The notes under the pieces: model-generated
The model's database searches: none
The model's input: only the letters and a program-made list of their open reading frames with translations
Told to the model about the DNA's origin: nothing
Origin: a virus
Virus record (IMG/VR): IMGVR_UViG_3300037852_000186
Location: 1 to 64,000 of that record
Direction: 5' to 3' (one strand)
Length of the DNA: 64,000 bases
Translations under genes and position numbers: made by a program
Shown here: piece after piece, positions 11-36,446 of the stretch
Layout of the letters: each line of letters starts with the position of its first letter
How positions within the stretch are numbered: the stretch's first letter is position 1

Positions 11-1381
11 TCACGAATGTTCCGTGCTGATCGCTTGCGTTAAAGTGATCGCCGTACAGTTGGCCCAAGAACCCGCTGCCAACTGTGTATAGCTCGGCTG
101 TGTTAGTACTATATTATATACTCCAGGAACGCTTCCTATTGCCGCAACGATCTCGGCTGGCACTATATCCCTGGCGATCCTTGACCCGATATTCAGCGCA
201 AACTGCGTCGCCGCTGTATTCGCCGCCGACATCGTAGTCGCTGGGTCCGCGTCAGAATAAAGCGTCACGGTGCCGACGATGGCGTAATCCACTTCAGTTA
301 CCGCGAGTGCATTGACAGTGTCCGTGAGCGGTCGGATCGAGTCCGAGTTAACGATAGCAAAAACCTTGGCGAGTATCGCACCGCTGGCGATAGCCGAAGT
401 GTTCGGGTTGCTGAACGGCTGCACGATAGGCCCCATCAGCACGTACACGTTCACAGTCCCTGGCACTGGCGTCGTTATCAGCACATCGATGATTCCAGGG
501 TCCGCTGACCGCGCCCAGAATTGATAAGCGCCATTCGGCCCCGCCACGCTGAAACGATTAGGCGCGGCTCGGATGCGGTCGCGTAGGTGCGCGTCAGACT
601 CAGTTTGGTTGCCGCCGCTCGTCACGGTCGTGTTCGTCACCGCCGAAACTAGAGTATTCGGGTTAAGCTGGACGGTGAGTTGCCCGATGGCGTAATTGTT
701 CGCGGTCGGCCCCGGCGTCGTGCAAACCGCGTTGATTACGCCGGTCGTGTTGCCGGCTGGAATCGTGAGGTCGCCGAGCGTGGCGAACGAAAACACGCCG
801 TCCTGGGTGCCTACAAGCGTTGCTGACGGCACCACGAAGGGAAGTGTCTGTGCTGCCCCAAGCGCGAATTGCAGAGTGCAGGAGGCGCCTACGGCTGGCA
901 ACCGCGTGACGCCGACCAGTTGCCCGAGATAGTCGAGCATCGGGTAAGCAGAAAACGCCACGAGGCATTGCATGGCCGCGTACTGAATCGCGTTGCGGAC
1001 GAGGGACTCGCGATAGGCATAGAGGTCGATCAGCAGGCGCTCGACTTGCGCTGGGTAAAGCGTGCGGCCGGCTAGGGCTTGGAAGGAGGCGATCATATCG
1101 TTGAGTATCGCGCCGGGGTCTAATCCATCCGCATCGTTAACGAAATTCGGGATCGGAAGAGAAACGATGCCCGTGGGAAGAGATACTACCTGCAAAACTG
1201 CCACACATGACCAGCCGCCCGTGCCATCAGTAGTGAAGGAACCGAGCACAGCTCCCCATGTTGGCGGTATTGGACCAGTAGACCCCGACAACGATGACCA
1301 CTGCTGAATATTTCCTGAGGGGTCCACGATAATTTTTCCAGCCGCTACACTGGAATTTGGCGCCCATGCGGGATTTGGCAT
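11..1381 (-). CDS. gpJ: Baseplate J/gp47 family protein with an extra N-terminal Trp-rich module
   Basis: LDYLG..GVTRL, ESDAHLRDRI, AGP.GAY.FWA, PGTV.VY and IRPLTD.V motifs of Baseplate_J. Confidence 0.92.
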   Translation of the reverse strand: MPNPAWAPNSSVAAGKIIVDPSGNIQQWSSLSGSTGPIPPTWGAVLGSFTTDGTGGWSCVAVLQVVSLPTGIVSLPIPNFVNDADGLDPGAILNDMIASFQALAGRTLYPAQVERLLIDLYAYRESLVRNAIQYAAMQCLVAFSAYPMLDYLGQLVGVTRLPAVGASCTLQFALGAAQTLPFVVPSATLVGTQDGVFSFATLGDLTIPAGNTTGVINAVCTTPGPTANNYAIGQLTVQLNPNTLVSAVTNTTVTSGGNQTESDAHLRDRIRAAPNRFSVAGPNGAYQFWARSADPGIIDVLITTPVPGTVNVYVLMGPIVQPFSNPNTSAIASGAILAKVFAIVNSDSIRPLTDTVNALAVTEVDYAIVGTVTLYSDADPATTMSAANTAATQFALNIGSRIARDIVPAEIVAAIGSVPGVYNIVLTQPSYTQLAAGSWANCTAITLTQAISTEHS

Positions 1382-2499: not shown

Positions 2500-2811
2500 T
2501 CAGTGATTCCGGGCTATATCAACGTTGGTTAAAGTTCCGCCGAATCGCGTAGCTCCGGTTTGTGGACACGCACTCGCATCACCCGTCAGCGTGACTATTT
2601 CACTGGATGTTTGCGCGCTCGTAAGCATTGACACCAATTGATTATCGGCTGTGCTGAAGTAAATAATAGGCGCCGCCTTCGTGCCGACGGGCATTGTGGG
2701 CACCGGGCCTTGTATGCGGTCAATTGTGCCACGCACTACGCAGGCTGCGTTAGAAATCGCGGCGATAGCTGTAACACTTATCAGCACGATCATCGTTAGA
2801 AAGTGTTTCAC
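2500..2811 (-). CDS. Secreted hypothetical protein
   Basis: GTG at 2811 follows AGGAGAG; MKHFLTMIVLISVTAIAAISNA signal peptide. Confidence 0.65.
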   Translation of the reverse strand: MKHFLTMIVLISVTAIAAISNAACVVRGTIDRIQGPVPTMPVGTKAAPIIYFSTADNQLVSMLTSAQTSSEIVTLTGDASACPQTGATRFGGTLTNVDIARNH

Positions 2812-2850: not shown

Positions 2851-3186
2851 TCATGGGGCATTGTATACAAGAGTCAGCATGCCGTTATAAGGTCTGGCCC
2901 CAGTAGGTCTAAACCTGACAGATATACTACACGCTGCATGTGCGGCCAGCATTGCACCACAAGTATTTGTTTGCGAATATCCTGTCGGCGCTGTGATGCT
3001 ATTAATTCGCAGGGCTACATTCTGTCTATTATTTAAGATTGCTGTTTTGGCGGGGCTGGTTGTGTTTATTTTTTGATTGCCGAACGATAAGTTACCAGGG
3101 AATAGTGTTACAGATCGTGTCCAAATTGCCCGCGCAGTTCCCGTGATGGCTATGATAAATATTACGATGCCGAGTTGTCGTTTCAT
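2851..3186 (-). CDS. Secreted Ig-like (choice-of-anchor D/ASH-like) domain protein, ending before the usual last strand
   Basis: Signal peptide; LSFGNQ..TTSPAKT...NTCGA.LA..A.CSISVRF.PT. Confidence 0.8.
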   Translation of the reverse strand: MKRQLGIVIFIIAITGTARAIWTRSVTLFPGNLSFGNQKINTTSPAKTAILNNRQNVALRINSITAPTGYSQTNTCGAMLAAHAACSISVRFRPTGARPYNGMLTLVYNAP

Positions 3187-3188
3187 AT

Positions 3189-6100
3189 TTATGCTGCTGC
3201 TGCGTCCGCTGCGACTACGTCAAACACCACTTCGCTCGAATAGACCGGACCGACTGGTCCAGGGAACATCAGGGCTACTGCCGCGTGCCAGCGTCCTATT
3301 GCGAAATCGCCAGGTACAACCGAGTATTCCCACTGCTGAGTGATTGTGTTCCAAGTCAGAGGGCGGGTCGTAAGATTATGGTTTTGGTCGCGAAGACAAA
3401 GGGTTGCGACAACCCCAGTGAAATCGTTGTAGCCACGGTTTACTGGCGAGAGTGGAAATCCCAGCACCTTGCCATTGTCCGCGAGCGTGACCGTGAAATA
3501 GCGATTGAAGCCTGTGCGTTCCCCTAGCATTGCGAAAACTGGCGCTCTGTAACCAAGGAGGCTCGCTATCGTGGTTTGGAGAGCGCTGAGTACGCTTTGG
3601 GCGAATTGTCTGATTGCTTGAATTGTAGTCACAACGGGCGCCATTAAGGTCATCGCGCCTTGGGCAATGAATGGTCCAATTCCGCTGAGCCCGAGCGCCG
3701 TGAGCTGCATGGTTACTTGTGCTGGCAACTTGCCCGCGAGGTTGGCGAGTACGGTTACGGTCTGATGAGTTACCGAGACTGCGGTAGCGACAAGCGCCTT
3801 GGTGGTGGAGTTTATCGCAAGTCCGATAATGGTCACTGCAATGATAGGCTTTCGGACTAGAACTCCCAGACTCGCCAATCGTGATGTGGAAATGGATGCA
3901 GCAATGCGGGCAATTAGTCGCGCGCTAGGAGTGAGGGCTTGATTAAGGATTGCACCAGCCGCCGAGATCCTAACCTTGACGGCCGCGATAACGTTTATGG
4001 CTTGGCTGATCGTCGCAAACGCCACATTGCGCGAGACTCGGAATAGAGAGATAAAGCTGGCAGCTACTGCGGGCGACAATATAACGAGCAGGGGTTTGCT
4101 GACGAATCTGGCGGCTGGAGTTACGGCTCGTCCAATTATTGCGTATGCTAAGGTCGCTGCGGTTTTAACTGGCGCCGCCGCGAGCAGCGCAATCGCCGCA
4201 ATCGATGCTGTTGCTTTGCCAATAAACCGGGCCGTAGCGCCTAGTGCCCGCGCGGTGATGGTCACGCTTGCTTTCGCCAGAAACCGCGCCGCCGACGTGA
4301 ATGCCTTGGCGGTTATCGCGTAGGTAGAAATCGCGCCAAGCTTGATCGTCTGAACCGTGGTCGCTGCTTGGCTTACTACGAGAAAAACTACTTGCTTGGT
4401 CATGCTCGTGCTGGCGGTCGCGGCAGCGACGAGCTTGGTGAGTGTGGCAGCGAGTTGGGCTGTAGGTATCAACCGAGAGGCTACGGCAAATGCTCGGCTA
4501 AGAATTGTATAGGTGGCCGTTACGGAGGTCTTGATTGCCGTTAACAGTGTGAGTGCTTGGGTGGAGATTGCTGCGGAAGCGTGTCCGATGAACCGAGATG
4601 CTGGGGTGAAGGCTTTGGCCGCGATGCTCGCGGATGCCTTACCGATGAACCGCGCTGTCACCGCGACGAGCGGGCTGGTCGCTGCATAAATTATTGTGGC
4701 GGTGGTCTTGATGGCCCCTGCTGCATTCAGTGCTTGCGCGCTGATGGCTGCGATGCTCTTGGTGAGAAACGAAGCCTTGGGAGCAAGGGCTTGCGCGAGC
4801 ACGGCGAAGCTTCTGCTCACGGCGGTCTTTACTGATTCGCTAGCGTTGACTGCGCGGTTCGCAATAGCTATCGCAACTGGCCCGAGGAAGCGCGCCGCTG
4901 GTGTAAGTGCCTGAATTGTAATTGCGAGCGCTATACTTGCTGCTGTTTTGATTGTGCCGCTGACATTGAGCGCTCGATTCGATACAGCAAGCGACACTTT
5001 GCCAAGAAGGCGCGAGGCTACTGTCAAGGCTTGGGAGGCTACGGTTAGGATCGCAACTCCCGTGGTTTTGACCGACCCAGCAGGGCTAAATGCCTTCGTT
5101 CCAATGATGACGGTTGCAGTTCCCGCGAACCTCGCGACTGGTGTGAGTGCGTCCGCCGATATTATGAGAATCGCGCTGAGAGTAGACTTTAGAAATTTGG
5201 CGAGATTGTGGGCACGTGGAATTCTTGTTCTCTGCGGTACGGCGTAACGACGCCTCGGGCGCATGCGCCGTGCGGTAGCGTAAATAAATCGCGCGGGCCT
5301 GATTCCGAACCGTCGCTTAATTGGTTGCACAGTAACAACCCGCCTTTTGCGTGTGAGTGCGTGGCGCGCTATTACCAGAAAGCCATTGAGTCGGGGAGCT
5401 GTTCGGCGTTTGAAATTGACAGTGGGAGATAGGAGCTTTTTGCGTTTAACGGCTCGCGCAACCCTGACGAACGGCATTCCGATGGCGTAAGTAAGGTGGT
5501 GTGCAATCCGATTACGGCGTGGCCGTTGCACCGCGCTAGGCCGCTTGCGTATTTGCGCTCGCCTGATTGTGGCCAGAAGCGGCGCGAATCGTCGCTCAGC
5601 TCGGCGCCTTGCCGCTGCCGCTGCAACTCGCGTCATCTTTCGCTTGATCCCGTGCGCGACACGAATGAACGGCATTCCGATGGGATAATAAAGATGTCTC
5701 GCGATTCGAGATCGCCGACGCTGTGCCGCTGCTGGCATGGCCGGTCGAACTCGCAAGCGGAGCGCTGCGTGAGCGGTATGAACTATAAACGTATGGACGT
5801 GCGGCGTAGGACGGAATCGTCGTGGTTGAGGTTGTGGTTGGGATAGGGCGTAACGGCGGCGGGGAGCGTGAGGTCGAGCGCTGCCGACAATCGCTGCTAT
5901 CGCCTGAAGAGCGATAATGATCGCTCCGCCATTGGTATTCCCACCGGCAGTAGCTTGAAATCCGTATGTGCCCGTTGCCGTGACGATCTGATAGGCCGAA
6001 TTAAATCCGTATCCATTGCCATTTACGACAGTTAATGCAGTAAACGTCCCACCCGTCGCGCCATAATCACTAAGTGTTGGCGTAAAGGTGCTACTATTGA

Positions 6101-6578
6101 CAGCCGTCCCAACCAATAGGTCATTGGCGTTAGTTGTGGTAATCGTGCCACTTTGCACATTCGCCGAAACGTTAGCATCAGTTCCGACACTTGACTTATC
6201 TACGGCCGCAGTAGTCGCCACACCGGAATAAGTAGATAGATTCGCCGCTATCCCATTGCCCGTCGAACCGGGGAATGTGCATGCTAACGTTACAATGGTC
6301 GCGCCTGATGGATGATTCAGTGAATAATGAATATCTACCTGAATACCCACAGAAGGAAACGCTGAAACCGGGCAAGACGTTAATTCAGTCCATACAGCGG
6401 AGCCTTGGTTATTATCAGAGACAGAAAATGTACCGAGAGATGTAAATCCCGTGTTTGGTTGCGATGATGAAGCTAGGACAAGACAATTTTCTCCAGCCGC
6501 TAACGTCAATGAGGGGAGAATCAGCGAACTACCGGACCCATTGTTGCCGCTAGTCTGCTGTTTAAAGACAATCGCCAC
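3189..6578 (-). CDS. Giant putative fibre protein: N-terminal beta domain, Arg-rich linker, Ala/Thr/Ile repeats, C-terminal BppU-like domain
   Basis: 1129-aa ORF tightly packed with neighbours; ALTPAARF/ALNAAGAIKT repeats; C-terminus paralogous to 11811..12113. Confidence 0.7.
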   Translation of the reverse strand: MAIVFKQQTSGNNGSGSSLILPSLTLAAGENCLVLASSSQPNTGFTSLGTFSVSDNNQGSAVWTELTSCPVSAFPSVGIQVDIHYSLNHPSGATIVTLACTFPGSTGNGIAANLSTYSGVATTAAVDKSSVGTDANVSANVQSGTITTTNANDLLVGTAVNSSTFTPTLSDYGATGGTFTALTVVNGNGYGFNSAYQIVTATGTYGFQATAGGNTNGGAIIIALQAIAAIVGSARPHAPRRRYALSQPQPQPRRFRPTPHVHTFIVHTAHAALRLRVRPAMPAAAQRRRSRIARHLYYPIGMPFIRVAHGIKRKMTRVAAAAARRRAERRFAPLLATIRRAQIRKRPSAVQRPRRNRIAHHLTYAIGMPFVRVARAVKRKKLLSPTVNFKRRTAPRLNGFLVIARHALTRKRRVVTVQPIKRRFGIRPARFIYATARRMRPRRRYAVPQRTRIPRAHNLAKFLKSTLSAILIISADALTPVARFAGTATVIIGTKAFSPAGSVKTTGVAILTVASQALTVASRLLGKVSLAVSNRALNVSGTIKTAASIALAITIQALTPAARFLGPVAIAIANRAVNASESVKTAVSRSFAVLAQALAPKASFLTKSIAAISAQALNAAGAIKTTATIIYAATSPLVAVTARFIGKASASIAAKAFTPASRFIGHASAAISTQALTLLTAIKTSVTATYTILSRAFAVASRLIPTAQLAATLTKLVAAATASTSMTKQVVFLVVSQAATTVQTIKLGAISTYAITAKAFTSAARFLAKASVTITARALGATARFIGKATASIAAIALLAAAPVKTAATLAYAIIGRAVTPAARFVSKPLLVILSPAVAASFISLFRVSRNVAFATISQAINVIAAVKVRISAAGAILNQALTPSARLIARIAASISTSRLASLGVLVRKPIIAVTIIGLAINSTTKALVATAVSVTHQTVTVLANLAGKLPAQVTMQLTALGLSGIGPFIAQGAMTLMAPVVTTIQAIRQFAQSVLSALQTTIASLLGYRAPVFAMLGERTGFNRYFTVTLADNGKVLGFPLSPVNRGYNDFTGVVATLCLRDQNHNLTTRPLTWNTITQQWEYSVVPGDFAIGRWHAAVALMFPGPVGPVYSSEVVFDVVAADAAAA

Positions 6579-7178
6579 TTAACTATCGCTTTGTATCGTG
6601 GAGGCGTGGAATACTATTGCGGGAGAAGTACCAGGAAAGTCTAACTCGAACGTTGCTAAGGGCGTCAAGAGTCCTGCCGTGAATGTTACCAACGAATTTG
6701 CTGTCGCTGTTACGACCGTCAGAGATGGGGCATGCGTGCCTACTCCCGTCGCATTAATAACTAACGGTGGCGGTGTTTCTGGTACGGGCGGTGGCATGGT
6801 TATAGGCAATACGAACTGCTGACTCAAAGTCGAGAAACAACCCACAACGATCAATGGTGCCGTACTATTGCTGACTGTCAATGGCTTCGTTGCCACGGCT
6901 GACGGGGAAATTGAGATCGCGCCCGTAACAGATGTCGCACCGCGCACTCCGAGTACAAGGCATGCCACGTAAGCGCTCGTCGAGAACGGAAACGCAAATA
7001 TGCGCCCGGCATCGCCGCTAGCTACTGTATAAGATAGAATTGTGATAGGGGCAGTATGGGCGACGAGATTCCAGCCACCGACTACTCCAAGTACGGGGCC
7101 GACGATACCGACTATATAGATATCGCCGACTTGTGCGTCGTTCTGGACAGCAACGTTATATCCGGTGGCATAAGACAT
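6579..7178 (-). CDS. Hypothetical beta-rich virion-associated protein
   Basis: GD(I/L)...GW motif resembles the N-terminal domain of 12113..15814; ATG 7178 avoids overlap with the upstream gene. Confidence 0.55.
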   Translation of the reverse strand: MSYATGYNVAVQNDAQVGDIYIVGIVGPVLGVVGGWNLVAHTAPITILSYTVASGDAGRIFAFPFSTSAYVACLVLGVRGATSVTGAISISPSAVATKPLTVSNSTAPLIVVGCFSTLSQQFVLPITMPPPVPETPPPLVINATGVGTHAPSLTVVTATANSLVTFTAGLLTPLATFELDFPGTSPAIVFHASTIQSDS

Positions 7179-7209
7179 GACATTAGTACGCTTAACGCAT
7201 TCGATGATA

Positions 7210-9825
7210 TCAAGGTCCGCAGCCGCTGGCGCCCGCCTTGCACACAGTAAGGAAAGTACCGCCGCTGCTGTTGCATGTGACAGCATTATGAATAAGATGG
7301 ACATCTGTCACGCCAGCAGGTAATACGAAGTCTGGTGTCGATGATTGTTCTATCCCACCCGGTCGAAACAACGCATATTGAGCGAGAATCTGTGCATCGT
7401 GCGTTCCATCAAATAGCCCGTTGGGATTATCGTTGCTCATTACATTGTTCGCTCCTGGTTGACCCCACCAATTCATATACGTAGAAATCCCACTTCCAGA
7501 AGAACCATAGTTGATAGTGCCCGAAAACGTGCTAGCGAAACCATTGTCATTCACGAGCACTTTTGAAGGGCCGCTGATATTAACCGTGCCAGAGCCTGGT
7601 CCAAATGACTGCCCGAGGTGAGTAAGAGTATATGTGACATTAGCGCCACCGTTGATCGTGATAAATGGATTCGAGTTAGGATTCGCCATCCCTATGTCAC
7701 TTACGATCACAGATCCCGAGTTGCCAGTATCCGCATAAAGGATTGGGTTATTCCCGCCAGCGAGGTTGAGTTCATCCCAATTATGCTCCGCAACAACGTG
7801 CCCTTGATTGGTCACGCTTGCTACAGGCCCGATATTGTCATTGTATTCCCATACACGCAGCGCCGATGGGGACGCGAAATTGCCATCGCCATTAGCCGTG
7901 TATGACGATGTTAAGCAGGGGCACGTCCTCCAATAATCGCCAGCCGATGATCCACCATTCCAATCTACTATAGTATTAGTTAGCCCGGTGGTTTCAACAT
8001 TAAATGCGAGATTGCCATTGACTATGGCCAGATGCTGCCATGCAGTCACGCGAGCAGCGCCGACATTTCCCGGACCTGTAGCCGCACTATCTTCTGAATC
8101 TACTTGAACAATTACGGACTCGCTCGTCCCGCCTAAGTTCATATATTCCAGGCTAGCCTTACCTGGAGATTGTATCTGTATCATTGGCGTAATAGTGGAA
8201 TTTGTAGTGAGATATGTCGGCCCTGAAAAATACGCTCCCTCCCCTACGATATGTACATCGCAATGACCGGGAATAACCAATGTCGCATTTAAAGTGTGCG
8301 TGCCCGACGTTAGGTGAATTTGTGGGTGATTGCCGCCTTGGTATCCACTCGGACAAGCAGCGTTGACATCGCCTTGAATGTTACTACCTGCCTCGTCGCT
8401 ACCCGCTGAACCGCACTGCGCCGACGATCCACCGTTGAAATAGCATAGGCGATGTGGATTCCCTGATCCAGAATCTATTCCGGTGTTTGGTGGCGTCGGG
8501 TAACAACTAGATAAGTCTGTACTGGTGCTTCCCGAGATAGTCGGACAGGCGGTGCTGATACCAGTAACGCCATAGGTGTCGTTAATCTCTTTCAAACGAG
8601 GATTGCTACCGAGATTAAAACCTCCCGAACCTACGCTGAATTGATTGCCGATGGCCATAGCCGAACCTTGGTTAGCATTGCCGGTGAATGGAGTGCCGCT
8701 ACTTACAATTTGATTATCGAGTGCTAGATATCCAGTCTCACCAGCCATATTTACTGCGTTGCCGCTAGTTGGATTGAGAATGCGGTTGCCACGTAAGGTG
8801 ACGCCCGTGTCTCTACCGTCATTGTTCTGATAAAACCTACCAGAGCCAGAGCTTACATTATTGACCATCGAGAACGAGATGTAGTTACCTGATTGAGTAT
8901 CTATATCGTATGTGTTCGAGTGTATAAATACAGATCCTACGGAGTACCAGCCGCCAAAGGCGTTGGCGTAAATGCTTATATTGTTATTGATGAACGTGTC
9001 AAACATGGACGAGTTATTTTGATTATTGCCGCCCGACGTGATAGGGCCACAGGGGTCACCAGCGCCGTTGTCACCTTCGTAGATTGCGCAAGTAAAGTTA
9101 TAGAAGCGCCCGCGTATAATTTGGGTGTCAGGCGGCTGTAGATTAAGTCCTACGCCACCCTGTGCGCAAGGAAATGATGGGGGATTCAAAGAGGTGGGAG
9201 CACATCGTTCAAACGTGACATCCGTGATTGCTCCTTGCCAGCCCCCAACGGAGACACTGCCAGATTCCAGGAATTGCATACCCACCGATGCGGTAGCATT
9301 CAGATTCCAAGTCAACCTGTGAATATCCAGGAGAGACACGTCATAACCGGCCGGACTGGAGAACATCGGCGATACGCTACCACTATTCCATTTAAGTATG
9401 GTATCCGTGGGGCTGTGACCATACATGCGCGGTGGATAATATATAGCGGAATAGCCCGCACAGCCAGAGTTAGTACTGTTGCAAGCCGTCCATGTCAGAG
9501 TGCTGCCGAGCAGATACGTTCCAGCGGGGAAATAGAGTGCGCCGCCGTTATGTTGCTCGTAGGTGATACAGGATTGCAACGCAGCATCCACATTACCCGT
9601 CAAGCTCGTACCCGTGCCGGTACATACCGCACCCCCTCCACCGACCGGAGCCCCCGTCTGAACATTAATCCATGAAGCGTAGGGACCAGCGAATTCATCC
9701 TCGGGGGTGTTGGCCGACACTACAGTTCCCGTTCCGCTTAGATTCACGGTTCTAGTCGCGGCAATCGCGGACGTAACGCTGAAGTTGAGTAGAATGAGAA
9801 ATATGAGAAATAGTTTACGGACCAT
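7210..9825 (-). CDS. Secreted pectin-lyase-fold (parallel beta-helix) protein, tailspike/depolymerase-like
   Basis: Signal peptide MVRKLFLIFLILLNFSVTSAIA; D.ALQ.CI...GALYFPAGTYLL cap motif, and a second cap (AAC...IHLTSGTHTL). Confidence 0.75.
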   Translation of the reverse strand: MVRKLFLIFLILLNFSVTSAIAATRTVNLSGTGTVVSANTPEDEFAGPYASWINVQTGAPVGGGGAVCTGTGTSLTGNVDAALQSCITYEQHNGGALYFPAGTYLLGSTLTWTACNSTNSGCAGYSAIYYPPRMYGHSPTDTILKWNSGSVSPMFSSPAGYDVSLLDIHRLTWNLNATASVGMQFLESGSVSVGGWQGAITDVTFERCAPTSLNPPSFPCAQGGVGLNLQPPDTQIIRGRFYNFTCAIYEGDNGAGDPCGPITSGGNNQNNSSMFDTFINNNISIYANAFGGWYSVGSVFIHSNTYDIDTQSGNYISFSMVNNVSSGSGRFYQNNDGRDTGVTLRGNRILNPTSGNAVNMAGETGYLALDNQIVSSGTPFTGNANQGSAMAIGNQFSVGSGGFNLGSNPRLKEINDTYGVTGISTACPTISGSTSTDLSSCYPTPPNTGIDSGSGNPHRLCYFNGGSSAQCGSAGSDEAGSNIQGDVNAACPSGYQGGNHPQIHLTSGTHTLNATLVIPGHCDVHIVGEGAYFSGPTYLTTNSTITPMIQIQSPGKASLEYMNLGGTSESVIVQVDSEDSAATGPGNVGAARVTAWQHLAIVNGNLAFNVETTGLTNTIVDWNGGSSAGDYWRTCPCLTSSYTANGDGNFASPSALRVWEYNDNIGPVASVTNQGHVVAEHNWDELNLAGGNNPILYADTGNSGSVIVSDIGMANPNSNPFITINGGANVTYTLTHLGQSFGPGSGTVNISGPSKVLVNDNGFASTFSGTINYGSSGSGISTYMNWWGQPGANNVMSNDNPNGLFDGTHDAQILAQYALFRPGGIEQSSTPDFVLPAGVTDVHLIHNAVTCNSSGGTFLTVCKAGASGCGP

Positions 9826-10867
9826 TGTCAACTACCGTGAGTGAACCGTTTACAGTTGTTTGGCTAGCGGGCGTGAAAGTTACGGACACTGAGCAATTGG
9901 CGCCAGCGCCTATTGATGCGCCGCAAGTGTTAGCCGAGATCGCATAACTAGCGGGCGATATAGTGATGCTGGTAAAGTTCAGCGGTACGGCTTGCACATT
10001 GCTGATGGTGACGGACTGCGCCGCACTGGTTTGTCCTACCGTTACGCTGCCGAAGGCTAGAGTGTTCGGAACGACTGAGACATGAGGCACGCTCGGCGCC
10101 AGGGCCACAATACCGCCGCAAAAATTACCGGTTGGGGTGAAAGCGCGTTGGAGGCTGGTATTTTGAGAGACGACAGCAGGTTCGGTTGCTGCCCCGATTG
10201 CTATGAAAGCATTAGAACCGATAGGGCCAAGGTCTGTGGGCGTGCCCGCGCCGACATTATTAGAAGATGCACCAGAAAATGCAGGACTGGTCGCTTCGGT
10301 GTAGAATAAACCAAAGAGTGTGTCGTTGGGCAAGGTAGCCGCGTTGGTGCCAGTAATTGCGGTTGCGCCTGCCGTGTATGGAGTGCCCGTACCGTTGTCG
10401 ATTAGCCCTAGATTATTGACCGTGCATAGGTATGCACCGTTGTTGCTTCCTTGATTGGGTTCGTGTGCGGTTACAGTGTCGGCACCTGTGAGGGGTGCGA
10501 GTACGTACTCGAAATTAATACAGTTATTAGATACCGCACCGACATTAGAAATAGTTGCCCAAGTATTGCCTTGGGTGTCAGTAACTGCGGGGTCGCCTGT
10601 TTGACCTTTATGGAATATTACCAACGATTGGCCAGCGGTCACGGTAACTGGTGCTAACACTACGTCATCGGCGCCCGCTGTGGCCCCGCCCGACGCCACG
10701 CCAGCAACGCAAGTACCAATAGTGGGAGCGTTGGAGACTACGACTGGGGAGCCTGCACTTGTGCCGATGAAGAAGATTCCCGTCGCGTTCGCAGGAGATG
10801 CGCGTGTACCGAGTATTGTACAGAGGCAAATAAGGATAGATATTCGCACGAGGCGTGAATGGTTCAT
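9815..10867 (-). CDS. Secreted protein: beta-sandwich domain plus C-terminal Ig-like (choice-of-anchor D/ASH-like) domain lacking its last strand
   Basis: Signal peptide; PNTLAFGSVTVGQTSAAQSVTISN...NTCGASIGAGANCSVSVTFTP; stops at LTVVDNGP. Confidence 0.78.
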   Translation of the reverse strand: MNHSRLVRISILICLCTILGTRASPANATGIFFIGTSAGSPVVVSNAPTIGTCVAGVASGGATAGADDVVLAPVTVTAGQSLVIFHKGQTGDPAVTDTQGNTWATISNVGAVSNNCINFEYVLAPLTGADTVTAHEPNQGSNNGAYLCTVNNLGLIDNGTGTPYTAGATAITGTNAATLPNDTLFGLFYTEATSPAFSGASSNNVGAGTPTDLGPIGSNAFIAIGAATEPAVVSQNTSLQRAFTPTGNFCGGIVALAPSVPHVSVVPNTLAFGSVTVGQTSAAQSVTISNVQAVPLNFTSITISPASYAISANTCGASIGAGANCSVSVTFTPASQTTVNGSLTVVDNGP

Positions 10868-11810: not shown

Positions 11811-12113
11811 TTAATCCGGTGGTAGCACGTCAAAAATAACTTCACTCGAATATATCGGCCCGCGAGGACCAGGAAACGTTACCGCGACTTCTGCCCAATA
11901 GCGTCCCGCTGGAAACTCCCCAGCAAAGACCGCATATTCCCATTCGATAGTTATCGTGTTCCACGCCATAGTGCGCGTGCGCAGCAGGTTGCCTTGGTCG
12001 CGGATATTGAGTACGGCGGACGCTCCGGTGAAATCATTAGGATCGCCCGAATGCTTGCGGAGCGGAAAGCCGAGCACTTTGCCGTTGTCTGCTGTCGTGA
12101 ATGATGGATACAT
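11811..12113 (-). CDS. Stand-alone BppU-N-like (Ig-fold adaptor) protein
   Basis: DFTGASA.L.IRD, WEY.V..G.F..G.Y.AEV.VTFP; TAATG overlap with the upstream gene. Confidence 0.7.
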   Translation of the reverse strand: MYPSFTTADNGKVLGFPLRKHSGDPNDFTGASAVLNIRDQGNLLRTRTMAWNTITIEWEYAVFAGEFPAGRYWAEVAVTFPGPRGPIYSSEVIFDVLPPD

Positions 12114-25667: not shown

Positions 25668-26711
25668 TCACAGTTTTCTAATCTCGACTTCAGTCGTGTA
25701 TCCGCTACTCCGCTCCAGCCGATGTTTGCTGGACTCGATATGGTACTTGCCGTCGAACGCCTTGAATCCGCTGATGTCGATGTTTATGCCAGCAACCAGC
25801 AGCACGGTTCCTTCCAGGTTGATCGTACCGGTGGTCTGCCACATGTTAGCGTCGTGCAGGGCGCTATCTGCCTTGAGTTGTGCCTGTTGCGGAGTCTCGA
25901 CGCGATGGATGATGTTCAAATCGTCGCCGGTTGGGGAACTCGAATCGGTTGCGGTCTTGGTAATTAGCTGCTTGGTCGCCGGATTCTGATAGCTAACGGT
26001 CGCGCTTTTATAGATTTTCTGTGTCCCGGTTTTAAATTCTGCTGACTTACATTGTGTGCGTATAATTTGCAGCACGGTTGCGGCTTGCTCCAGCGCGGCC
26101 TTTGCGTAAAAGGTCAGTTGCGAGCCGTGGATTGTGAAATCATAGCCGTGCGCAAGCGCGAGGTTACGTAGAAAGTTAAGGTCTGTTTCGTGTCGCTGGC
26201 TCAATCGCTGCCACATCACATTGATGTTGGCTGGCGCGTTGAGCACCGTCATGCCGTGGCGACTTGCAATCTTTTGTGCAACTTGAATCAAGGTCGCATT
26301 CTCGTAGCGGTCGCTTCGATGCGTACGCAGCGACGGCTTGATACCCGCCGCAATGCACTTCATGTGGAAGGTGTCGCCGCTACTTGCGTCAGTTTTTAGC
26401 TCCAGTTCGTCAACCTCGAAATCGCCGCAGTCGAGCATCTTTTCGCCGTCATAGCCCATCCATAACTCAACAAAATCGCCGCGCTGCGGAATCCAAGGCC
26501 CCTGCCATCTGCGGTCGCGGTCTTCAAGGGTCACTTCTATCTCGTCGCTCTCGGCACCTATGGTTTGATGATCGTGTGTATGGTGCGCCTTACCTTCTGT
26601 GTAAGTAATTTCGACCACCATTCTAGAGATGTCGGCGCTCCAATCTTTGCCAGTGTACTTGAGCTTCCAGCGGGGATGGCGGACTGGTAAGGATTTGGGG
26701 GCTGCGGCCAT
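25668..26711 (-). CDS. gpD: Baseplate hub / phage late control D family protein
   Basis: SDEIEVTLED, G.FEVDE, Q..ETDLNFL..LA...G, L.AG..I.ISGF..FDGKY.I...HRL..SGYTT. Confidence 0.92.
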   Translation of the reverse strand: MAAAPKSLPVRHPRWKLKYTGKDWSADISRMVVEITYTEGKAHHTHDHQTIGAESDEIEVTLEDRDRRWQGPWIPQRGDFVELWMGYDGEKMLDCGDFEVDELELKTDASSGDTFHMKCIAAGIKPSLRTHRSDRYENATLIQVAQKIASRHGMTVLNAPANINVMWQRLSQRHETDLNFLRNLALAHGYDFTIHGSQLTFYAKAALEQAATVLQIIRTQCKSAEFKTGTQKIYKSATVSYQNPATKQLITKTATDSSSPTGDDLNIIHRVETPQQAQLKADSALHDANMWQTTGTINLEGTVLLVAGINIDISGFKAFDGKYHIESSKHRLERSSGYTTEVEIRKL

Positions 26712-29421: not shown

Positions 29422-29904
29422 TTAGAGCCTATTCGATCTAACGCAATGGTTGTTACGTCGTCTTCGTCGATTCTCGGTAATAGAGCGACGTATGTCGGAC
29501 GCGTGCCGCACGATGTTGAATTGGCTTAGCCCAGATATGCCATCTTGAGGCAGCTTGCGAAGCTCCGTGCGAATCCAATTAGGTTCCAGTGAACTACCGT
29601 CAGCATGACATAAGTAGTCGCATACTTGTTCTAAGCTGAACGGGGATTCGTAGTTGCCGAATAGCCACTTATTGGCTTCGACTTGTAGTCGGACTCGATG
29701 CGCGACTGTCCACGTTCCCTTGCCGATCCAGCATCGCAAAGCGTCTTCCAACAGCGCGGCCATCAGTTTGTGTTCAGGCGTAGGTTCGTGCGACCGCAAC
29801 ACAATGTCGTAAAATTGCGAGGGTAGAAGCGCGTCGTTGGCCATCATTGGATTGTGGTCCAGTGATAGGTAGGGCGCTCCTTCCGCGTATCCAATATCAG
29901 TCAT
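29422..29904 (-). CDS. Hypothetical protein (LLPSQF...PE..LM.A.LEDA family)
   Basis: LLPSQFY, PEHKLMAALLEDALRC, WLF...PFSLEQVCDYL. Confidence 0.65.
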   Translation of the reverse strand: MTDIGYAEGAPYLSLDHNPMMANDALLPSQFYDIVLRSHEPTPEHKLMAALLEDALRCWIGKGTWTVAHRVRLQVEANKWLFGNYESPFSLEQVCDYLCHADGSSLEPNWIRTELRKLPQDGISGLSQFNIVRHASDIRRSITENRRRRRNNHCVRSNRL

Positions 29905-32299
29905 AACGCAACCGCGCCTCTCGGCCTAACTTGTTCTTAACGATTCTAACAATGTGATCCGCGTGTTTATTAAGATCCTCGGGGGTGGCGCCGTGAATGG
30001 TCGGAGCGTAGTGGAGATTGATAGTGACGCCAGCACTGCCCGCAGCGCTCGCTGGCGTGTGACGCATGACGCTGTTGACGTAGTCGCTATCAACGCCGTG
30101 GCTGCGGACCCAGCCTTCGCCCTGATGCCAAGCAGAAAGCGCTTTATTGATGTCTCCACCGAACTCGGGCATGTACTTGCCAAAAATTACCCTGTTGGCG
30201 ACATCGGTGCTCGTCCCCATCGACATCGCTTGCTCAGGTGTCACACCCCAGGTCTGGCGGAAGCCGCGAGTCATCTGAAAGGGGCCGATGGCGCTACTCG
30301 CAGGGTTAGTTAGCATCTTGCCGTAGCTGCTTTCGGTGCCCATCAGACCGTGGAGAATTCTGTCGGCACCAACCCCCGCAAAGGATTTGATTGATTGCCA
30401 AGCTTGGTGCATAGATCCACCAAGCGTTTTTGATAGAGCGTTACCTAGCAGCGAAGACGAACGCAGAATCGCCTCAGCGATAGTCTCGACAATTGTTATA
30501 TTCTCAAGGTCTTGTAGTGGTCCTTCCTTTACTGGCGAGTGCGGGAAGAAGCCCATGATCTTCTTCCCTACCGCCTTGAGAACATCGGAGAGATTGAATT
30601 CGACGGCGTGAAGGATTCCGCGTCCCAACTCTGTTATTATCCGCCCGCCGAAATGATACATCTCTGGGATGAAATCAAGAATTACGTAACGTATTGATTT
30701 TGTGATGCCTTCTACTGCTGTGCCCAAAAAAGATAGTGCATTGTGAGTTTCTACGATGGCAAGCGAAGATGTGCCACCCGCAGCGTCGGGAGCTTTGATG
30801 CTTGCCCAGAGAGATTTAATATCAGCCCAGTGTTCGTAGATTTCATACGAGGCAACTACGATTCCCGCAATGATAGCGACTGGCCAAGCGATAGTAAGGA
30901 GCGCGGCGCTAAATCCCTCGGTGGCTACTGTCAGGCCCTCCGTAGCCCCGGTGGTGATAACTTCGGCGGTTCTCATCCACTCGATGATTTTGCCGGTGAG
31001 CTTTATTGCTTCCCCACCGAGAATCATGGTAGCGCCAAGAGCGTTCATGGCTTGCATGGCGCGATACAGGCCGGACCCCAAGAGTTGGATACTACCAGTA
31101 GCAAGGCCAGCTACTATTGAATGGTGCTCGGTAGCGCCCGTAAGGCGTGTTATCGCTTTGGTGAGTTCATCGGTTAAGTAGGTTTCCGTAGGAAGGGCTG
31201 GGGTTGTCAGAGCATCGCCGAAGTTGCTCCACGCTTGGTGAAGCTTCGTGGTGGCGTCCTTCATGTTGTCTGTGGCAGTAGTATATTTCTTTTGCAACGT
31301 GCCTGACGAATCAGCAACTTGCCCTTGAGATTTAACCATCTCGTCGTAATGAGCGAGCAGGTTAACCATTGCCACGGGGTTGCTAATGCCTAGAGCTGCT
31401 GCTCGTTGAATTTCGTCTCCGCTCAGTTGTTGCAGCATCTCGTCTTGCTTTTTAGCAGACAGATGGTAGAAGTTTTCGGGGAGGATTACGTTGCCACCAA
31501 TTTGATCTTTTAACTGTTTAAGTGCGGAGAACAAACCGTGCGTGAAATCAAGAGCTACTTTGCCCTGTTCCGATGCCTTGATGAGTTGAGGAATCATGGC
31601 ATTGAGCATCATCGTGCCACGCCCGCCCCCCATCAGTCGCGATGCTTCACCAGTCAACGCAATAGTTTCCGAGAGCGGAGAATTAGATAGTGCTGCGCTT
31701 GCCCCTAGCTTGGCCACGGCCATAGAAAATTGGCCGACTTTGTCTGGTGCAATAGCGTAGACTTCAACTGCTTTAGCAATTTCGTCGCCCGTAGTCTTTG
31801 CATCAGTACGTTGATTAGACCAGGAGACTTGCATGAGATTGGTAACAGCGTCGGTCGCGATCCCTAATCGGCCTAGCTCTGCCGCGATGTCCTCCGCTTG
31901 CATAGCTTTGGCCGTATCATGGTAAACTCCCTGGAAACGAGTAAAGCCCGCGATCCATTCTTCCGCTGTAGTGCCTGGATGTGTATCTGAAAATGCTATT
32001 GCAGCTTCTTTTAGCTTGGTAAGTTGCTCGCCTGCGAGTCTAGTAGTTGCAGCCATGGTCGCCATCGCATGCTCCATATCGATGGCGGGTTCCGTGATGC
32101 TTGCTCCCAGTTCACGGAGTTGCGAAATCCCTTCTGAGGCGAGTCCGCTTGCCAGCGCCAGTCTCTCACCCGCGTTGATTAAAGCTTCGCCGGTTCCCTT
32201 GACTCGCTCGGTCAGCGTATTAAAGCGTTTGCCGATATTATCGACAGTGCCGCTAAGGCTGTCGATTGCTTTAAATACTACTGCGAACGGGAGTTCCAT
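29897..32299 (-). CDS. Tail tape measure protein with C-terminal lytic transglycosylase (SLT-like) domain
   Basis: Helical Ala-rich 800-aa ORF after the chaperone; TESS...SSAIGPFQM...FGGDINKALSAWHQG. Confidence 0.88.
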   Translation of the reverse strand: MELPFAVVFKAIDSLSGTVDNIGKRFNTLTERVKGTGEALINAGERLALASGLASEGISQLRELGASITEPAIDMEHAMATMAATTRLAGEQLTKLKEAAIAFSDTHPGTTAEEWIAGFTRFQGVYHDTAKAMQAEDIAAELGRLGIATDAVTNLMQVSWSNQRTDAKTTGDEIAKAVEVYAIAPDKVGQFSMAVAKLGASAALSNSPLSETIALTGEASRLMGGGRGTMMLNAMIPQLIKASEQGKVALDFTHGLFSALKQLKDQIGGNVILPENFYHLSAKKQDEMLQQLSGDEIQRAAALGISNPVAMVNLLAHYDEMVKSQGQVADSSGTLQKKYTTATDNMKDATTKLHQAWSNFGDALTTPALPTETYLTDELTKAITRLTGATEHHSIVAGLATGSIQLLGSGLYRAMQAMNALGATMILGGEAIKLTGKIIEWMRTAEVITTGATEGLTVATEGFSAALLTIAWPVAIIAGIVVASYEIYEHWADIKSLWASIKAPDAAGGTSSLAIVETHNALSFLGTAVEGITKSIRYVILDFIPEMYHFGGRIITELGRGILHAVEFNLSDVLKAVGKKIMGFFPHSPVKEGPLQDLENITIVETIAEAILRSSSLLGNALSKTLGGSMHQAWQSIKSFAGVGADRILHGLMGTESSYGKMLTNPASSAIGPFQMTRGFRQTWGVTPEQAMSMGTSTDVANRVIFGKYMPEFGGDINKALSAWHQGEGWVRSHGVDSDYVNSVMRHTPASAAGSAGVTINLHYAPTIHGATPEDLNKHADHIVRIVKNKLGREARLRYD

Positions 32300-33558: not shown

Positions 33559-35718
33559 TTACTGTGCTGCGGTAGTAGCCGCCCCAGTTAATTGCGCCAG
33601 CAGGTTCTGGTCAATAAAGACGTTGAAGGTGAGCCGTTCAGCGGGGGGTGGCGGCATACAGTCTATATCGAAAACCAAATGGCCGGCCGCGGTTTCGGAA
33701 GGGGGATTTTCGGCGGGATTATATGTAGCAGTACCAGCGACCAGCGCTCCGCGTCCAATTAAGGTACGCAGAAAGCTATTGGCGCTGGCAAGAATGGTGG
33801 TGATGAGGGAGTTACTAATCGGCTGATCCAAAAATTGCATCATCGACAGCATCACGCTCTGTTCGATGACATCCATAGTGCGGCGAATCGGGATAAATAC
33901 GTCAGGCGTGGTGTTGGATGGGAAGCCCGCGCTGCGATTGCCCCACACGCGCAGACCGGTGCCGAAGGCTTGGAACGCTGTCACGATGCCCTGTGAGTTA
34001 AGCACGTTGGTATCGCTGGCCGCGTCGATGAAGCTCGCGTAAATGTTCGTGTCTGGTCCGAGCATGCCGAATATCTGCGTGTTCGACGGCGACCACCAGT
34101 AGCCTTGTGCGAGGTCTTTTGCAGAGGTCGCGCCAGCTACCCAAGGGCTGAAAGGTCCGCTGTGCGTTACGTTCGCGATGGTCGCTACTGCATTGCCGCT
34201 GATTGGGTCGATGCCTATGCTGTTCGGTACGACGCCGCTGTCGAGAAATAGTTCTTGTGGGCCGCAGAGGATCGCGCGCTTGTCGCTGGTATTAAACGAA
34301 TTGCCAGAGGCCCCGCGATTACTGAGCAACGTGGCTGGTGCTGTAAGGGGTGGGCAATCGACGAAGTACATTGCGCGCATTGCAAAAGCGACAGTTGCCA
34401 TTCCAGCGGATACGGTTGCATCTTGAGACCCTACGGTTTGTCCAGTCGGGATATAGGTTCCGAAACTCGGGGCAATTAGGAGTTTCGGGAAGAAACCCAT
34501 CAGATTGTAGCTGAGCTTCCACGCCTGCATTCCTGTGTAGACGTTGCTGGCGACGGAGCCGACGAGGTCAGAGTCCACCAGCTTACTTGGATCGGTGTAA
34601 TTGCATGTGATTTTGATTGTTTGGCCTGCCACAAGCAGCCCGCCACCAATAGCTTTGACAATTCCGTTAACTCTATCGACGGTAAAATCCGCACCTTCAA
34701 CATAGGTAGTAGAGACCGCACTATTTGTAATCTTGATCGTGGACAGCCCCATGTGGCCGACGTTGATCGCTTGAGAGCCCGAGGCCGGGAAGGTATAAGA
34801 CACAGCCGTAAGCGTTGAAAAATGTTTGGTTTGGTCGAAGACATTGACCGCGATCACTTGCCCTGCGCCCTGTGCAAAGACTTGATTAAGCGCATAGGGA
34901 ATCGTGAAACCCTGAATCATCGGGCCGAAGGTGCCGGATTGGCCGGGTGCTAAGGAGTTCGGATTCGAGCCGGCGACGAGCATTGGCGTTTGAAGGTTCG
35001 CGATTGGTCCTTTCGCGGTTAAGGTCCAGGTAACCGTTCCGGTAGCCGTCGCAATCGTGTCCGCTGTGGTGGCGCCGACAGTAGTTGCCCAGCTTGGCGC
35101 GGCTGTGGCGCTCGTTATGGCCGCCTTGCCTATCGCGACTAGCGTCCAGATGACTCCATTGTCGGTAGGCGAGGCTGTGCCGAGTGTGGTTGCCCAAACT
35201 GGAGGTGCACCGCCCGAGGTGCCAGCAGTCGTGCAGCGCTGGGTATTTCCATTCGAATCTAAGACTAAATAGCCAACAACGTATGATGTGCCGAGTACCC
35301 AGACTGGTAGCACGATTCCGGTCGCGGTCTGAATATTGCCATTCGCGTCAATGCACTGCTGACCAGCCGCCGCGCCGATTGCCGAGAGAGTCCAGACTAC
35401 AGAACCGTCACTAACAGTAGAACCGATCGTGCGGCCCCAGGCTGGCGTTGCGCCGTTCGTGGTGCCAGGGGTGGTACATTTCTGAGTGTTGCCGTTTGAG
35501 TCGAGGAGAAGATTGCCGACTACTTGCGCGGTGTTGGGACTCCATGCGGCGGCGGCTTGCACTAACCACGAAAGATCCCAAAGTGGTATCGCACCGGGGA
35601 CGGCGAAGAGCGGAGCAGAGCCGACTAGCCCGATGACTGCGCTGTTAACGACGGTTATCGGCGTTGGACCTATCGCGAATTCAAATGTCTCTACGCCATG
35701 AAGGAAACTAGCAGGCAT
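33559..35718 (-). CDS. Tail sheath protein (P2 FI-type) with inserted accessory domains
   Basis: MPASFLHGVET, SAVIGLVG.AP, GYWWSPSN, LN..GI, G.R.WGNRS, PPPPAERL.F. Confidence 0.95.
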   Translation of the reverse strand: MPASFLHGVETFEFAIGPTPITVVNSAVIGLVGSAPLFAVPGAIPLWDLSWLVQAAAAWSPNTAQVVGNLLLDSNGNTQKCTTPGTTNGATPAWGRTIGSTVSDGSVVWTLSAIGAAAGQQCIDANGNIQTATGIVLPVWVLGTSYVVGYLVLDSNGNTQRCTTAGTSGGAPPVWATTLGTASPTDNGVIWTLVAIGKAAITSATAAPSWATTVGATTADTIATATGTVTWTLTAKGPIANLQTPMLVAGSNPNSLAPGQSGTFGPMIQGFTIPYALNQVFAQGAGQVIAVNVFDQTKHFSTLTAVSYTFPASGSQAINVGHMGLSTIKITNSAVSTTYVEGADFTVDRVNGIVKAIGGGLLVAGQTIKITCNYTDPSKLVDSDLVGSVASNVYTGMQAWKLSYNLMGFFPKLLIAPSFGTYIPTGQTVGSQDATVSAGMATVAFAMRAMYFVDCPPLTAPATLLSNRGASGNSFNTSDKRAILCGPQELFLDSGVVPNSIGIDPISGNAVATIANVTHSGPFSPWVAGATSAKDLAQGYWWSPSNTQIFGMLGPDTNIYASFIDAASDTNVLNSQGIVTAFQAFGTGLRVWGNRSAGFPSNTTPDVFIPIRRTMDVIEQSVMLSMMQFLDQPISNSLITTILASANSFLRTLIGRGALVAGTATYNPAENPPSETAAGHLVFDIDCMPPPPAERLTFNVFIDQNLLAQLTGAATTAAQ

Positions 35719-35745
35719 TAGTATGTACTCCCATTGACTAAGTGC

Positions 35746-35774
35746 TTGACGGCGCGTCGATACCGTGCAAGACT
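35746..35774 (+). promoter_or_regulatory. Possible promoter for the antisense HNH gene
   Basis: TTGACG-17 bp-AAGACT (TG-extended), 9 bp before ATG 35784. Confidence 0.4.
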
Positions 35775-35783
35775 GTCGGTAGA

Positions 35784-36446
35784 ATGAACACATGCGCTGC
35801 CTGCCATCAAGAGAAACCCATCGTCGCTAAAGGTCTCTGCAAGCGCTGCTACAGCGCGCAATGGCGTGCTGAGCACCTTAACGCGGCTCGTGCCTATGCC
35901 GCCTCGTACCAGCGCGAATGGCGCGCTAAGCATCCTGAAGAGTACGCGGAAGCGGAACGCGCTCGGCACGCCCGTCGAGTTGCCGCCGATCCCGAAGGGA
36001 TGAAAGCTGCCGCTAAAGAGCGCAGCCACAAGCATTATTTGAATAACAAGGAAGACGTGAAAGAACGCGCCCGTCTTTGGCATTTGGCCAATATCGAAAA
36101 AGCCAGAGAAGCCTGTCGCCGCTGGCGCGCTGCTCATGGTCGTGAATGGTATTTGAAATGGAAAGCAGAGCATCCAGAAGAATACCAACAACACTCCAGC
36201 GCTCATCGCCTTCGTATGCGAATCGCCGAAGGGCATTTCACGGTCACAGATATCCAACGCATCTTCGTGGAACAAGGCGGTTTTTGCGCTAATCCAGCGT
36301 GCGACGAGTCGCTTGAAGCTGAGTACGATATCGACCACAAGATTCCGCTCAGTCAGCCAGGGACTAGCAACTGGCCGCACAACATTCAGCTTCTCTGTCC
36401 GCCCTGCAATGGTCATAAGGGAAATCGCATCGACCTCGGCTATTAA
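35784..36446 (+). CDS. HNH endonuclease (antisense to the late operon)
   Basis: GLCKRCY; helical basic repeats; DIDHKIPL...NIQLLCPPCN..KG. Confidence 0.88.
   Translation: MNTCAACHQEKPIVAKGLCKRCYSAQWRAEHLNAARAYAASYQREWRAKHPEEYAEAERARHARRVAADPEGMKAAAKERSHKHYLNNKEDVKERARLWHLANIEKAREACRRWRAAHGREWYLKWKAEHPEEYQQHSSAHRLRMRIAEGHFTVTDIQRIFVEQGGFCANPACDESLEAEYDIDHKIPLSQPGTSNWPHNIQLLCPPCNGHKGNRIDLGY

Follow-up and report, generated by a model that had tools for sequence, protein, structure and literature searches.

Can two neighboring phage genes, each encoding its own exported protein, share a single immunoglobulin-like (Ig) domain? This question is raised by two overlapping genes, here called P1 and P2, in the virus record IMGVR_UViG_3300037852_000186. 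The window that we analyzed is the first 64 kb of this 99,974-base IMG/VR record, which is rated complete by CheckV, and all long open reading frames (ORFs) of the window lie on the minus strand. P1 (9815..10867, minus strand) encodes a 350-amino-acid protein with a predicted signal peptide, a phage-type N-terminal domain, and an Ig domain that lacks its last strand. P2 (7210..9825, minus strand) encodes 871 amino acids from an ATG at 9825, comprising a predicted signal peptide, a candidate donor strand, a short linker, and a GH55-like double β-helix. The reading that we favor with modest confidence, guided by structure modeling, is that the two proteins dock non-covalently by donor-strand complementation after export. 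This claim of a split Ig joint rests on one genome and on prediction.

An Ig domain in P1 that ends before its last strand

P1 begins with a predicted Sec signal peptide (residues 1-28, MNHSRLVRISILICLCTILGTRASPANA; 10784..10867, minus strand), recognized by inspection, which has two arginines among its first eight residues and a best 10-residue hydropathy window of 2.91. An N-terminal domain that belongs to no Pfam family follows (residues 29-255; 10103..10783, minus strand), and the Ig domain occupies the remainder of the chain (9818..10102, minus strand). Residues 257-350 match the choice-of-anchor D family NF012200 with 59.1 bits, above the curated cut-off of 45, and the ASH family PF15780 with an E value of 2.7e-11 (44 bits; cut-off, 27). 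Several related Ig profiles break off on P1 15-20 positions before the end of the profile. Alignment to a profile hidden Markov model (HMM) and modeling with AlphaFold2 place only strands A to F in P1, with the chain ending in the F-G loop at ...GSLTVVDNGP, directly followed by a TAA stop codon at 9815-9817. Two cysteines of the Ig domain (C56 and C66 in alignment A6) occupy nearly invariant columns and are present both in P1 and in a second protein of this type, Q1, which is described below.

A sequence-only reading of this locus had proposed that P1 stops just before the final Ig strand, and comparison with homologs bears this out. In 110 BLAST segments taken from 42 homologs, the domain runs on as ...DNAxGSPQ-TV-x-L-[ST]-G-[ST]-G. 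In the five homologous proteins in which the domain is C-terminal, the chain stops one residue past the ...G-x-G of the G strand and never earlier, and at two related viral loci the choice-of-anchor D domain terminates with ...TNASTSPNNAPLSGTGV. Our domain HMM has 111 positions and was built from 74 homologous segments, all 74 of which continue with the G strand; P1 aligns to positions ~3-94. The full sandwich, including the final G strand (SPQ-TVxLxGxG), is found within one chain in neither P1 nor Q1.

The same reading had named a frameshift error in a single fused gene as the case that would speak against a split domain. This case is not borne out, as contigs from Logan, an independent assembly, encode a 350-amino-acid protein that is identical to P1 and has the same C-terminus and stop. 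The ~66 nt between DNGP and ATRTV encode the P2 signal peptide; therefore, a single-base error would give a domain with a hydrophobic insert, not a normal domain. A fused protein might also be made by recoding, either through a +1 frameshift at CCG-TAA or through ribosome hopping. Reading CCGT as one step does join the P1 and P2 frames cleanly, and +1 shifts classically occur where a stop codon follows a proline codon. However, the fusion would bury a hydrophobic segment of 19-22 residues in the F-G loop, and slippery re-pairing is absent: tRNA-Pro on CCG cannot re-pair on CGU. In addition, the second gene pair, Q1 and Q2, is separated by a true intergenic spacer containing AGGAGAG. With the same stop in both assemblies, we regard a single fused product, whether from recoding or from an assembly error, as highly improbable.

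Individual recoding routes were examined and rejected. The +1 frameshift at CCG-TAA joins the frames but fails on the hydrophobic segment in the loop and the lack of a re-pairing codon. Hopping of the T4 gene 60 type finds no matching take-off and landing codons in the productive frame, the downstream CCG codons all lying in the third frame with a stop soon after. A Pfam/HMMER search on the read-through fusion did not bridge the 20-residue insert.

A candidate donor strand at the mature N-terminus of P2

The P2 ORF opens at a TTG at 9831, and its likely start is the ATG at 9825, from which it reads MVRKLFLIFLILLNFSVTSAIA and then ATRTVNLSGTGTVVSANTPEDEFAGPY. The start of P2 overlaps the end of P1 and its TAA by 11 nt (9815..9825, minus strand), with P2 in the +1 frame. 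Residues 1-22 (9760..9825, minus strand) form a predicted Sec signal peptide that ends in A-I-A, as judged by inspection and by alignment with homologs. It contains R3 and K4, has a 10-residue hydropathy window of 3.01, and lines up with the signal peptides at the N-termini of the homologs P0053 (the closest, at 46-49% identity), P0089, and P0062. By inspection, the N-termini of P1, P2, Q1, and Q2 all fit the Sec pattern of a basic n-region, a hydrophobic h-region of 10-15 residues, and small residues at positions -3 and -1. No duplicated genomic source for the DNA encoding the P2 signal peptide was found in the phage genome. As the sequence-only reading had stated, the overlapping gene past its signal peptide begins ATRTVNLSGTG; the ORF, its sequence, and the ATG at 9825 all agree with this.

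The candidate donor strand is the mature N-terminus of P2, ATRTVNLSGTGT (9724..9759, minus strand), identified by G-strand score, MAFFT alignment, and AlphaFold2, and the N-terminal peptide ATRTVNLSGTGTVV is the candidate ligand for the P1 Ig domain. When the 11 G-strand positions were scored without gaps along the minus-strand ORFs of the 100-kb genome, TRTVNLSGTGT ranked first among 45,996 sequence windows with 19.2 bits, followed by matches of 15.2 and 12.5 bits. Judged from sequence, this match is well beyond chance, even leaving aside its location at the predicted N-terminus of the neighboring mature protein. Appending the mature P2 N-terminus to P1 extended the HMM coverage to position 109 and added 9.2 bits. 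None of 1000 shuffled donor peptides reached that score. Among 5000 peptides from the genome, 7 did so, at least four of which (among the five best listed) came from the Ig domain of P1 itself.

The second-best G-strand match in the genome, PLVINATGVGT (15.2 bits; 6735..6767, minus strand), lies behind a proline-rich linker in P3 (ORF 6579..7304), the gene after P2, whose start is at 7304 or ~7178. An A-strand-like stretch, APSLTVVTATANSLVTF, follows it. This peptide could be a further donor strand or a piece of a domain.

We modeled the composite domain with AlphaFold2 using a read-through construct (P0196), in which CCGT is read as one step to join P1 residues 251-350 to P2 and the signal peptide acts as a linker. 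The alignment contained nine complete choice-of-anchor D domains, the Q1 Ig domain, and 25 relatives of P2. MAFFT gapped over the P2 signal peptide unprompted, and in the six rows shown, the G strands of complete domains land on ATRTVNLSGTG. The model had a predicted template modeling score of 0.82, and its predicted local distance difference test (pLDDT) values were ~90-96 for the Ig strands (model residues 13-98), ~55 for the signal-peptide linker, and ~95 for the 12-residue donor strand (120-131). Model residues 11..131 superposed on the ASH domain of CEP192 (7ptb; VIA-align) with a Z score of 13.9 at 1.7 Å over 105 residues. Only 90 of the 105 superposed residues can belong to P1; therefore, the donor strand fills the last-strand position in the model. 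The predicted structure is thus a composite β-sandwich built from two adjacent gene products of a tail/fiber module. The earlier claim that the P2 N-terminus completes the Ig fold of P1 stands in so far as sequence, MAFFT, and AlphaFold2 all point to a G strand. The placement of the peptide by AlphaFold2 is evidence of compatibility, not independent proof, given how the model alignment was composed (see below).

In the mechanism that we propose, P1 and P2 would be translated separately and exported through Sec, and P1 would supply strands A-F of a choice-of-anchor D/ASH (PapD-like) sandwich. Signal peptidase would cut P2 after A-I-A, leaving A23 and the sequence ATRTVNLSGTG as the free N-terminus, which would insert beside strand F as the G strand and complete the fold. 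The outcome would be a GH55-like P2 tethered non-covalently to its adaptor, P1. We infer the export, the cleavage, and the actual binding of the two proteins. P2 has 19 cysteines; together with the nearly invariant cysteine pair of the Ig domain, these fit an extracytoplasmic, oxidizing compartment. The coupling had also been likened to SpyTag. In the covalent sense this fails, as there are no lysines in P1 residues 256-350 or in the first 20 residues of mature P2. A Lys-Asn/Asp isopeptide bond is therefore impossible, and the joint would be non-covalent.

The proposed joint depends on where P2 starts. The IMG gene call for P2 (P0199) begins at the GTG of V36 (9718..9720), encodes 836 amino acids beginning VSANTPEDEF, and leaves out both the signal peptide and the donor strand. 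For P1, the IMG call starts at V70 (~10658..10660) and gives 281 amino acids, whereas the Logan call gives the full 350. We consider both IMG starts the less likely ones. If P2 did begin at V36, its product would lack both signal peptide and donor strand and stay in the cytoplasm as a tailspike-like enzyme, and the open frame upstream would go untranslated; β-helix depolymerases encoded in phage tail modules are indeed usually virion tailspikes. Yet P0053 and other homologs align with the P2 signal peptide from their own first methionine, and nearly all members of the P2 family bear a signal peptide. A start at V36 would also leave a stretch of ~100 nt untranslated although the operon is tightly packed, produce a tailspike without an attachment domain, and give no reason for the genome's best G-strand match to lie in an untranslated stretch. 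On these grounds, we find a start at V36 very unlikely.

A linker, VVSANTPE (9700..9723, minus strand; pLDDT ~71), leads from the donor strand to the catalytic body of P2 (7213..9699, minus strand). According to the AlphaFold2 model and fold searches, this body consists of two tandem right-handed β-helix domains, the arrangement that defines the GH55 fold and is found in the GH55 β-1,3-glucanases Lam55A (3eqn) and SacteLam55A (4pew). The P2 model aligned with Lam55A (3eqn_A) with a Z score of 17.1 and a root mean square deviation of 3.3 over 503 residues (model 142..854), and with 5m5z and 8jhh at Z scores of 16.3 and 15.7; the top Foldseek matches were also GH55 structures. The first helix alone resembles alginate epimerases/lyases, RbmB, and phage tailspike depolymerases at Z scores of 15-18.7. 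The matches to β-helix enzymes begin at model residues 141-148, past the donor strand. Unlike GH55 enzymes, P2 had no Pfam match at E ≤0.1. PF12708 is present in distant homologs (28-29% identity), one of which bears the name GH55. Based on the model, P2 is a probable, still putative, GH55-like polysaccharide depolymerase.

An exhaustive HMMER search returned 179 relatives of P2 at E ≤0.001, four of which fell below 1e-30, P2's own fragment included; identities to relatives in searches with P2 were 21-38%. In most of the ~150 metagenome and genome relatives listed, the signal peptide is followed directly by a mature chain that starts on DEEFVGPF or only a few residues away from it; others have unrelated domains fused upstream. 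The 20-residue N-terminal extension of P2 is therefore outside the conserved enzyme. No choice-of-anchor D-like G strand was found among 119 P2 homologs, the best scoring 9.9 bits versus 19.2 for P2. A few of the nearest relatives have strand-like extensions, such as DITITVTA and VSVGISVTSTG, that are unlike the choice-of-anchor D G strand.

In the nearest relatives (P0053, P0089, P0061, P0073, and P0117), a short strand-like stretch followed by a turn rich in glycine or small residues lies between the signal peptide and DEEFVGPF. Examples of these stretches are DITITVTAVSAGGG, VSVGISVTSTGS, and SVTVPIEVTPGGTS, and they might be donor strands for other sockets.

A second strand-less domain and the search for the same split

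A scan of the whole genome with the domain HMM found exactly two choice-of-anchor D domains, those of P1 and Q1, both cut at the same loop. Q1 (2851..3186, minus strand; 111 amino acids) consists of a predicted signal peptide and a single choice-of-anchor D Ig domain, as seen by HMM and AlphaFold2. The Q1 domain covers HMM positions 5-95 of 111 (E = 2e-23), is 40% identical to the P1 Ig domain, and ends ...LTLVYNAP-TGA. Because the two copies have diverged to 40% identity and have a common cut point, the absence of the strand looks like an old, maintained state instead of a recent accident. If so, the perfectly preserved P2 strand would be under selection.

Beside Q1 lies Q2 (2500..2811, minus strand; 103 amino acids), which encodes a small exported-type protein in the frame of Q1, with a GTG start after the AGGAGAG. 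Q2 resembles an OB-fold in the ESM Atlas, which we treat as a lead only, and it is a possible partner of Q1. We modeled a Q1-TGA-Q2 read-through, translated with genetic code table 4, with AlphaFold2 from alignment rows that were trimmed before the G strand, an unbiased design. The Q1 core was modeled with pLDDT >90 and Q2 was left unfolded. In this prediction, the socket of Q1 is open, and the run does not identify its donor. Read-through of the TGA was rejected as a source of the donor, as the read-through peptide and the Q2 N-terminus score poorly as a G strand.

These results bear on the possibility that the Ig domains of P1 and Q1 are sockets for some other partner, or open grooves like those of PapD-type chaperones. 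The P2 strand would then be one of several ligands, or not the physiological one. The genome has two strand-less domains and one clear donor, and AlphaFold2 had no difficulty in placing an unrelated hydrophobic strand in the groove of Q1. The fold itself groups with PapD-like and MSP domains, Q1 matching FimC and Caf1M at Z scores of ~10. Against this, the P2 peptide is a native-like G strand and the top match in the genome, and it is encoded directly downstream in a gene that overlaps the P1 stop. We consider this alternative, as a whole, quite improbable.

The sequence-only reading had called for the same split to be sought in homologs. We looked for it and found no homologous pair in another genome. 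Scans of viral contigs with P1, P2, Q1, P0089, and two alignments returned only complete choice-of-anchor D domains (L002-L004) or generic β-helix N-termini, and word-based searches returned two distant relatives of P2, Ig-only matches for P1, and no match for Q1. In 160 metagenome and genome loci of P2 relatives (L005-L167), the domain HMM detected no truncated choice-of-anchor D domain upstream of any relative. Apart from the complete domains of L002-L004, its only matches were P1 and Q1 of the window. Literature searches on donor-strand complementation in phages and on choice-of-anchor D found nothing relevant.

Two of the complete domains belong to secreted enzymes of 863 and 805 amino acids that are encoded on one 178-kb viral contig (L002:1829-4420 and L003:1994-4411). 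The N-terminal bodies of these enzymes are unrelated, and their C-terminal modules, each a complete choice-of-anchor D domain with a tail ending ...QQKYACHP, are nearly identical. The module seems to be a cassette for docking or anchoring that the two enzymes share.

The main rival to docking is that the split is an evolutionary leftover, in which fission or recombination cut an Ig-β-helix gene at the F-G loop and the products are now independent or decaying. The P1 Ig domain would then be unfolded, tolerated, or completed in some other way, and the P2 strand would be a harmless remnant. The lack of a conserved pair elsewhere fits this explanation, as does the lack of a donor strand in the neighbor of Q1. 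There are also traces of cutting and pasting nearby, namely the G-strand-like motif of P3 and a 100-amino-acid gene at 11811..12113 (see below). However, the ORFs of P1 and P2 are both long and intact, the P2 strand keeps the full T-V-x-L-S-G-T-G consensus, and the cut leaves neither gap nor overlap. Moreover, two diverged copies cut at one point indicate a maintained state. We consider a leftover unlikely, although it deserves more weight than the other alternatives discussed here.

Several observations weigh against docking of P1 and P2. The searches described above found no second genome with a P1-P2-type pair in which conservation or co-variation of the split could be seen. The signal peptides were judged by eye only, and the IMG gene calls start after the strand in P2 and at V70 in P1. 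The alignment for the P1-P2 model had the G strands of homologs laid on the donor peptide, biasing the model toward this answer. For Q1, the neighboring Q2 has no convincing donor strand (its top match to the G strand, at 8.9 bits, is internal), and AlphaFold2 placed the hydrophobic core of the Q2 signal peptide in the empty strand position of Q1 with a pLDDT of 57. Finally, there is no obvious route into virions for exported proteins of a virion gene module, and the biological purpose of P1-P2 is therefore a guess. As such a guess, we infer that the likely purpose of the docking would be to hold a polysaccharide depolymerase outside the cytoplasm, for example, for clearance of capsule or exopolysaccharide at release or for receptor destruction.

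Genomic setting and comparison with known joints

Matches to PHROGs identified a tail sheath (33559..35793), a tape measure (29897..32299), and a tail protein (25668..26711), and the virus is therefore a contractile-tailed phage. P1 and P2 sit at the distal, fiber-like end of the sheath/tape-measure module. In a MAFFT alignment, the N-terminal domain of P1 shares 31% identity, and the motifs VTAG, GQTG, and NDxL-FG, with the second N-terminal module of a 1233-amino-acid protein. Pairwise BLASTP against neighboring proteins was weak, with an E value of 0.007 over part of the domain, and the nearest ESM Atlas clusters were unnamed viral proteins (score 0.95; a lead only). The domain is probably the same module as the N-termini of two giant repeat (fiber-like) proteins nearby, and P1 looks like an adaptor that shares this module with them. 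The likely origin of the pair is an ordinary split-Ig joint between consecutive fiber genes, in a lineage whose fiber-module proteins gained signal peptides.

At least eleven genes of the tail/virion module have convincing predicted Sec-type signal peptides at their N-termini (for example, MRLVRKAIFSLIFLALVGTAFA and MFKSRVLILLALLGCARPAFA), with starts at 2811, 3186, 9825, 10867, 18056, 21050, 24101, 25089, 25522, 41075, and 43858 (minus strand). This is odd for a tailed phage, which is expected to assemble in the cytoplasm. The 100-amino-acid gene at 11811..12113 (minus strand) abuts the 1233-amino-acid repeat protein with an ATGA overlap at 12113. By eye, its product resembles the last ~100 residues of a 1129-amino-acid protein (3189..6578, minus strand), so that one module is present as a separate gene at one site and is fused at the other.

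In chaperone-usher pili (Fim, Pap, Caf1, and Saf), a Sec-exported Ig-like subunit that lacks its G strand is completed by the N-terminal extension of another polypeptide. The earlier analogy to this donor-strand complementation is apt on the evidence of sequence and model: the acceptor lacks strand G, the donor would lie at the mature N-terminus of its neighbor, and the fold class is related. Unlike these systems, the phage appears to encode no usher or PapD-type chaperone; PF00345 and PF00577 had no match in the 99,974-base record, whereas control genomes did match. P2 has no incomplete Ig domain of its own, as a β-helix follows the strand, and this would give a 1:1 joint with no polymer. The domain is also of the choice-of-anchor D/ASH type instead of a pilin, the cargo is an enzyme of 870 amino acids, and the genes belong to a tailed phage.

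SpyTag/SpyCatcher is an engineered split of the CnaB2 domain, locked by a Lys-Asp isopeptide bond. As in that system, an Ig-like domain is here split at its last strand, and a peptide and a truncated domain would rebuild the fold. The P1-P2 split is natural, however, not engineered, and with no lysine in the P1 Ig domain or the donor, it would be held together non-covalently.

A phage precedent is found in the baseplate of Lactococcus phage Tuc2009, in which the C-terminal β-hairpin of BppU completes the sandwich of BppA to form a composite, titin-like Ig domain in the crystal structure (PMC4742702). There too, a terminal β element of one protein completes the sandwich of another. In Tuc2009, however, the donor is a C-terminal hairpin, the partners are cytoplasmic virion proteins without signal peptides, and the Ig type is different, whereas P2 would donate one strand from its N-terminus, freed by the predicted cleavage of the signal peptide. 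The signal-peptide-like N-termini of P1 and P2 argue against cytoplasmic virion assembly.

A broader reading, which we hold to be doubtful, is that this phage assembles fibers and enzymes partly outside the cytoplasm, with cleaved N-terminal donor strands plugging strand-less Ig sockets such as P1 and Q1. This would be donor-strand complementation free of chaperone and usher, producing enzyme-adaptor complexes in the periplasm or at the cell surface that perhaps decorate virions or strip receptors at release.

What would set the P1-P2 joint apart is a separate signal peptide on each of its halves, so that it would have to form after export. A joint placed in an Ig loop would let recombination at the gene boundary swap in a new depolymerase module. 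If our interpretation is correct, a very common bacterial Ig family would have yielded a natural non-covalent tag and socket of ~12 and ~95 residues. Donor-strand complementation would then extend beyond pilus systems that come with dedicated chaperones and ushers, and a phage would use a simple plug and socket to couple a large enzyme to its adaptor once both have passed through Sec.

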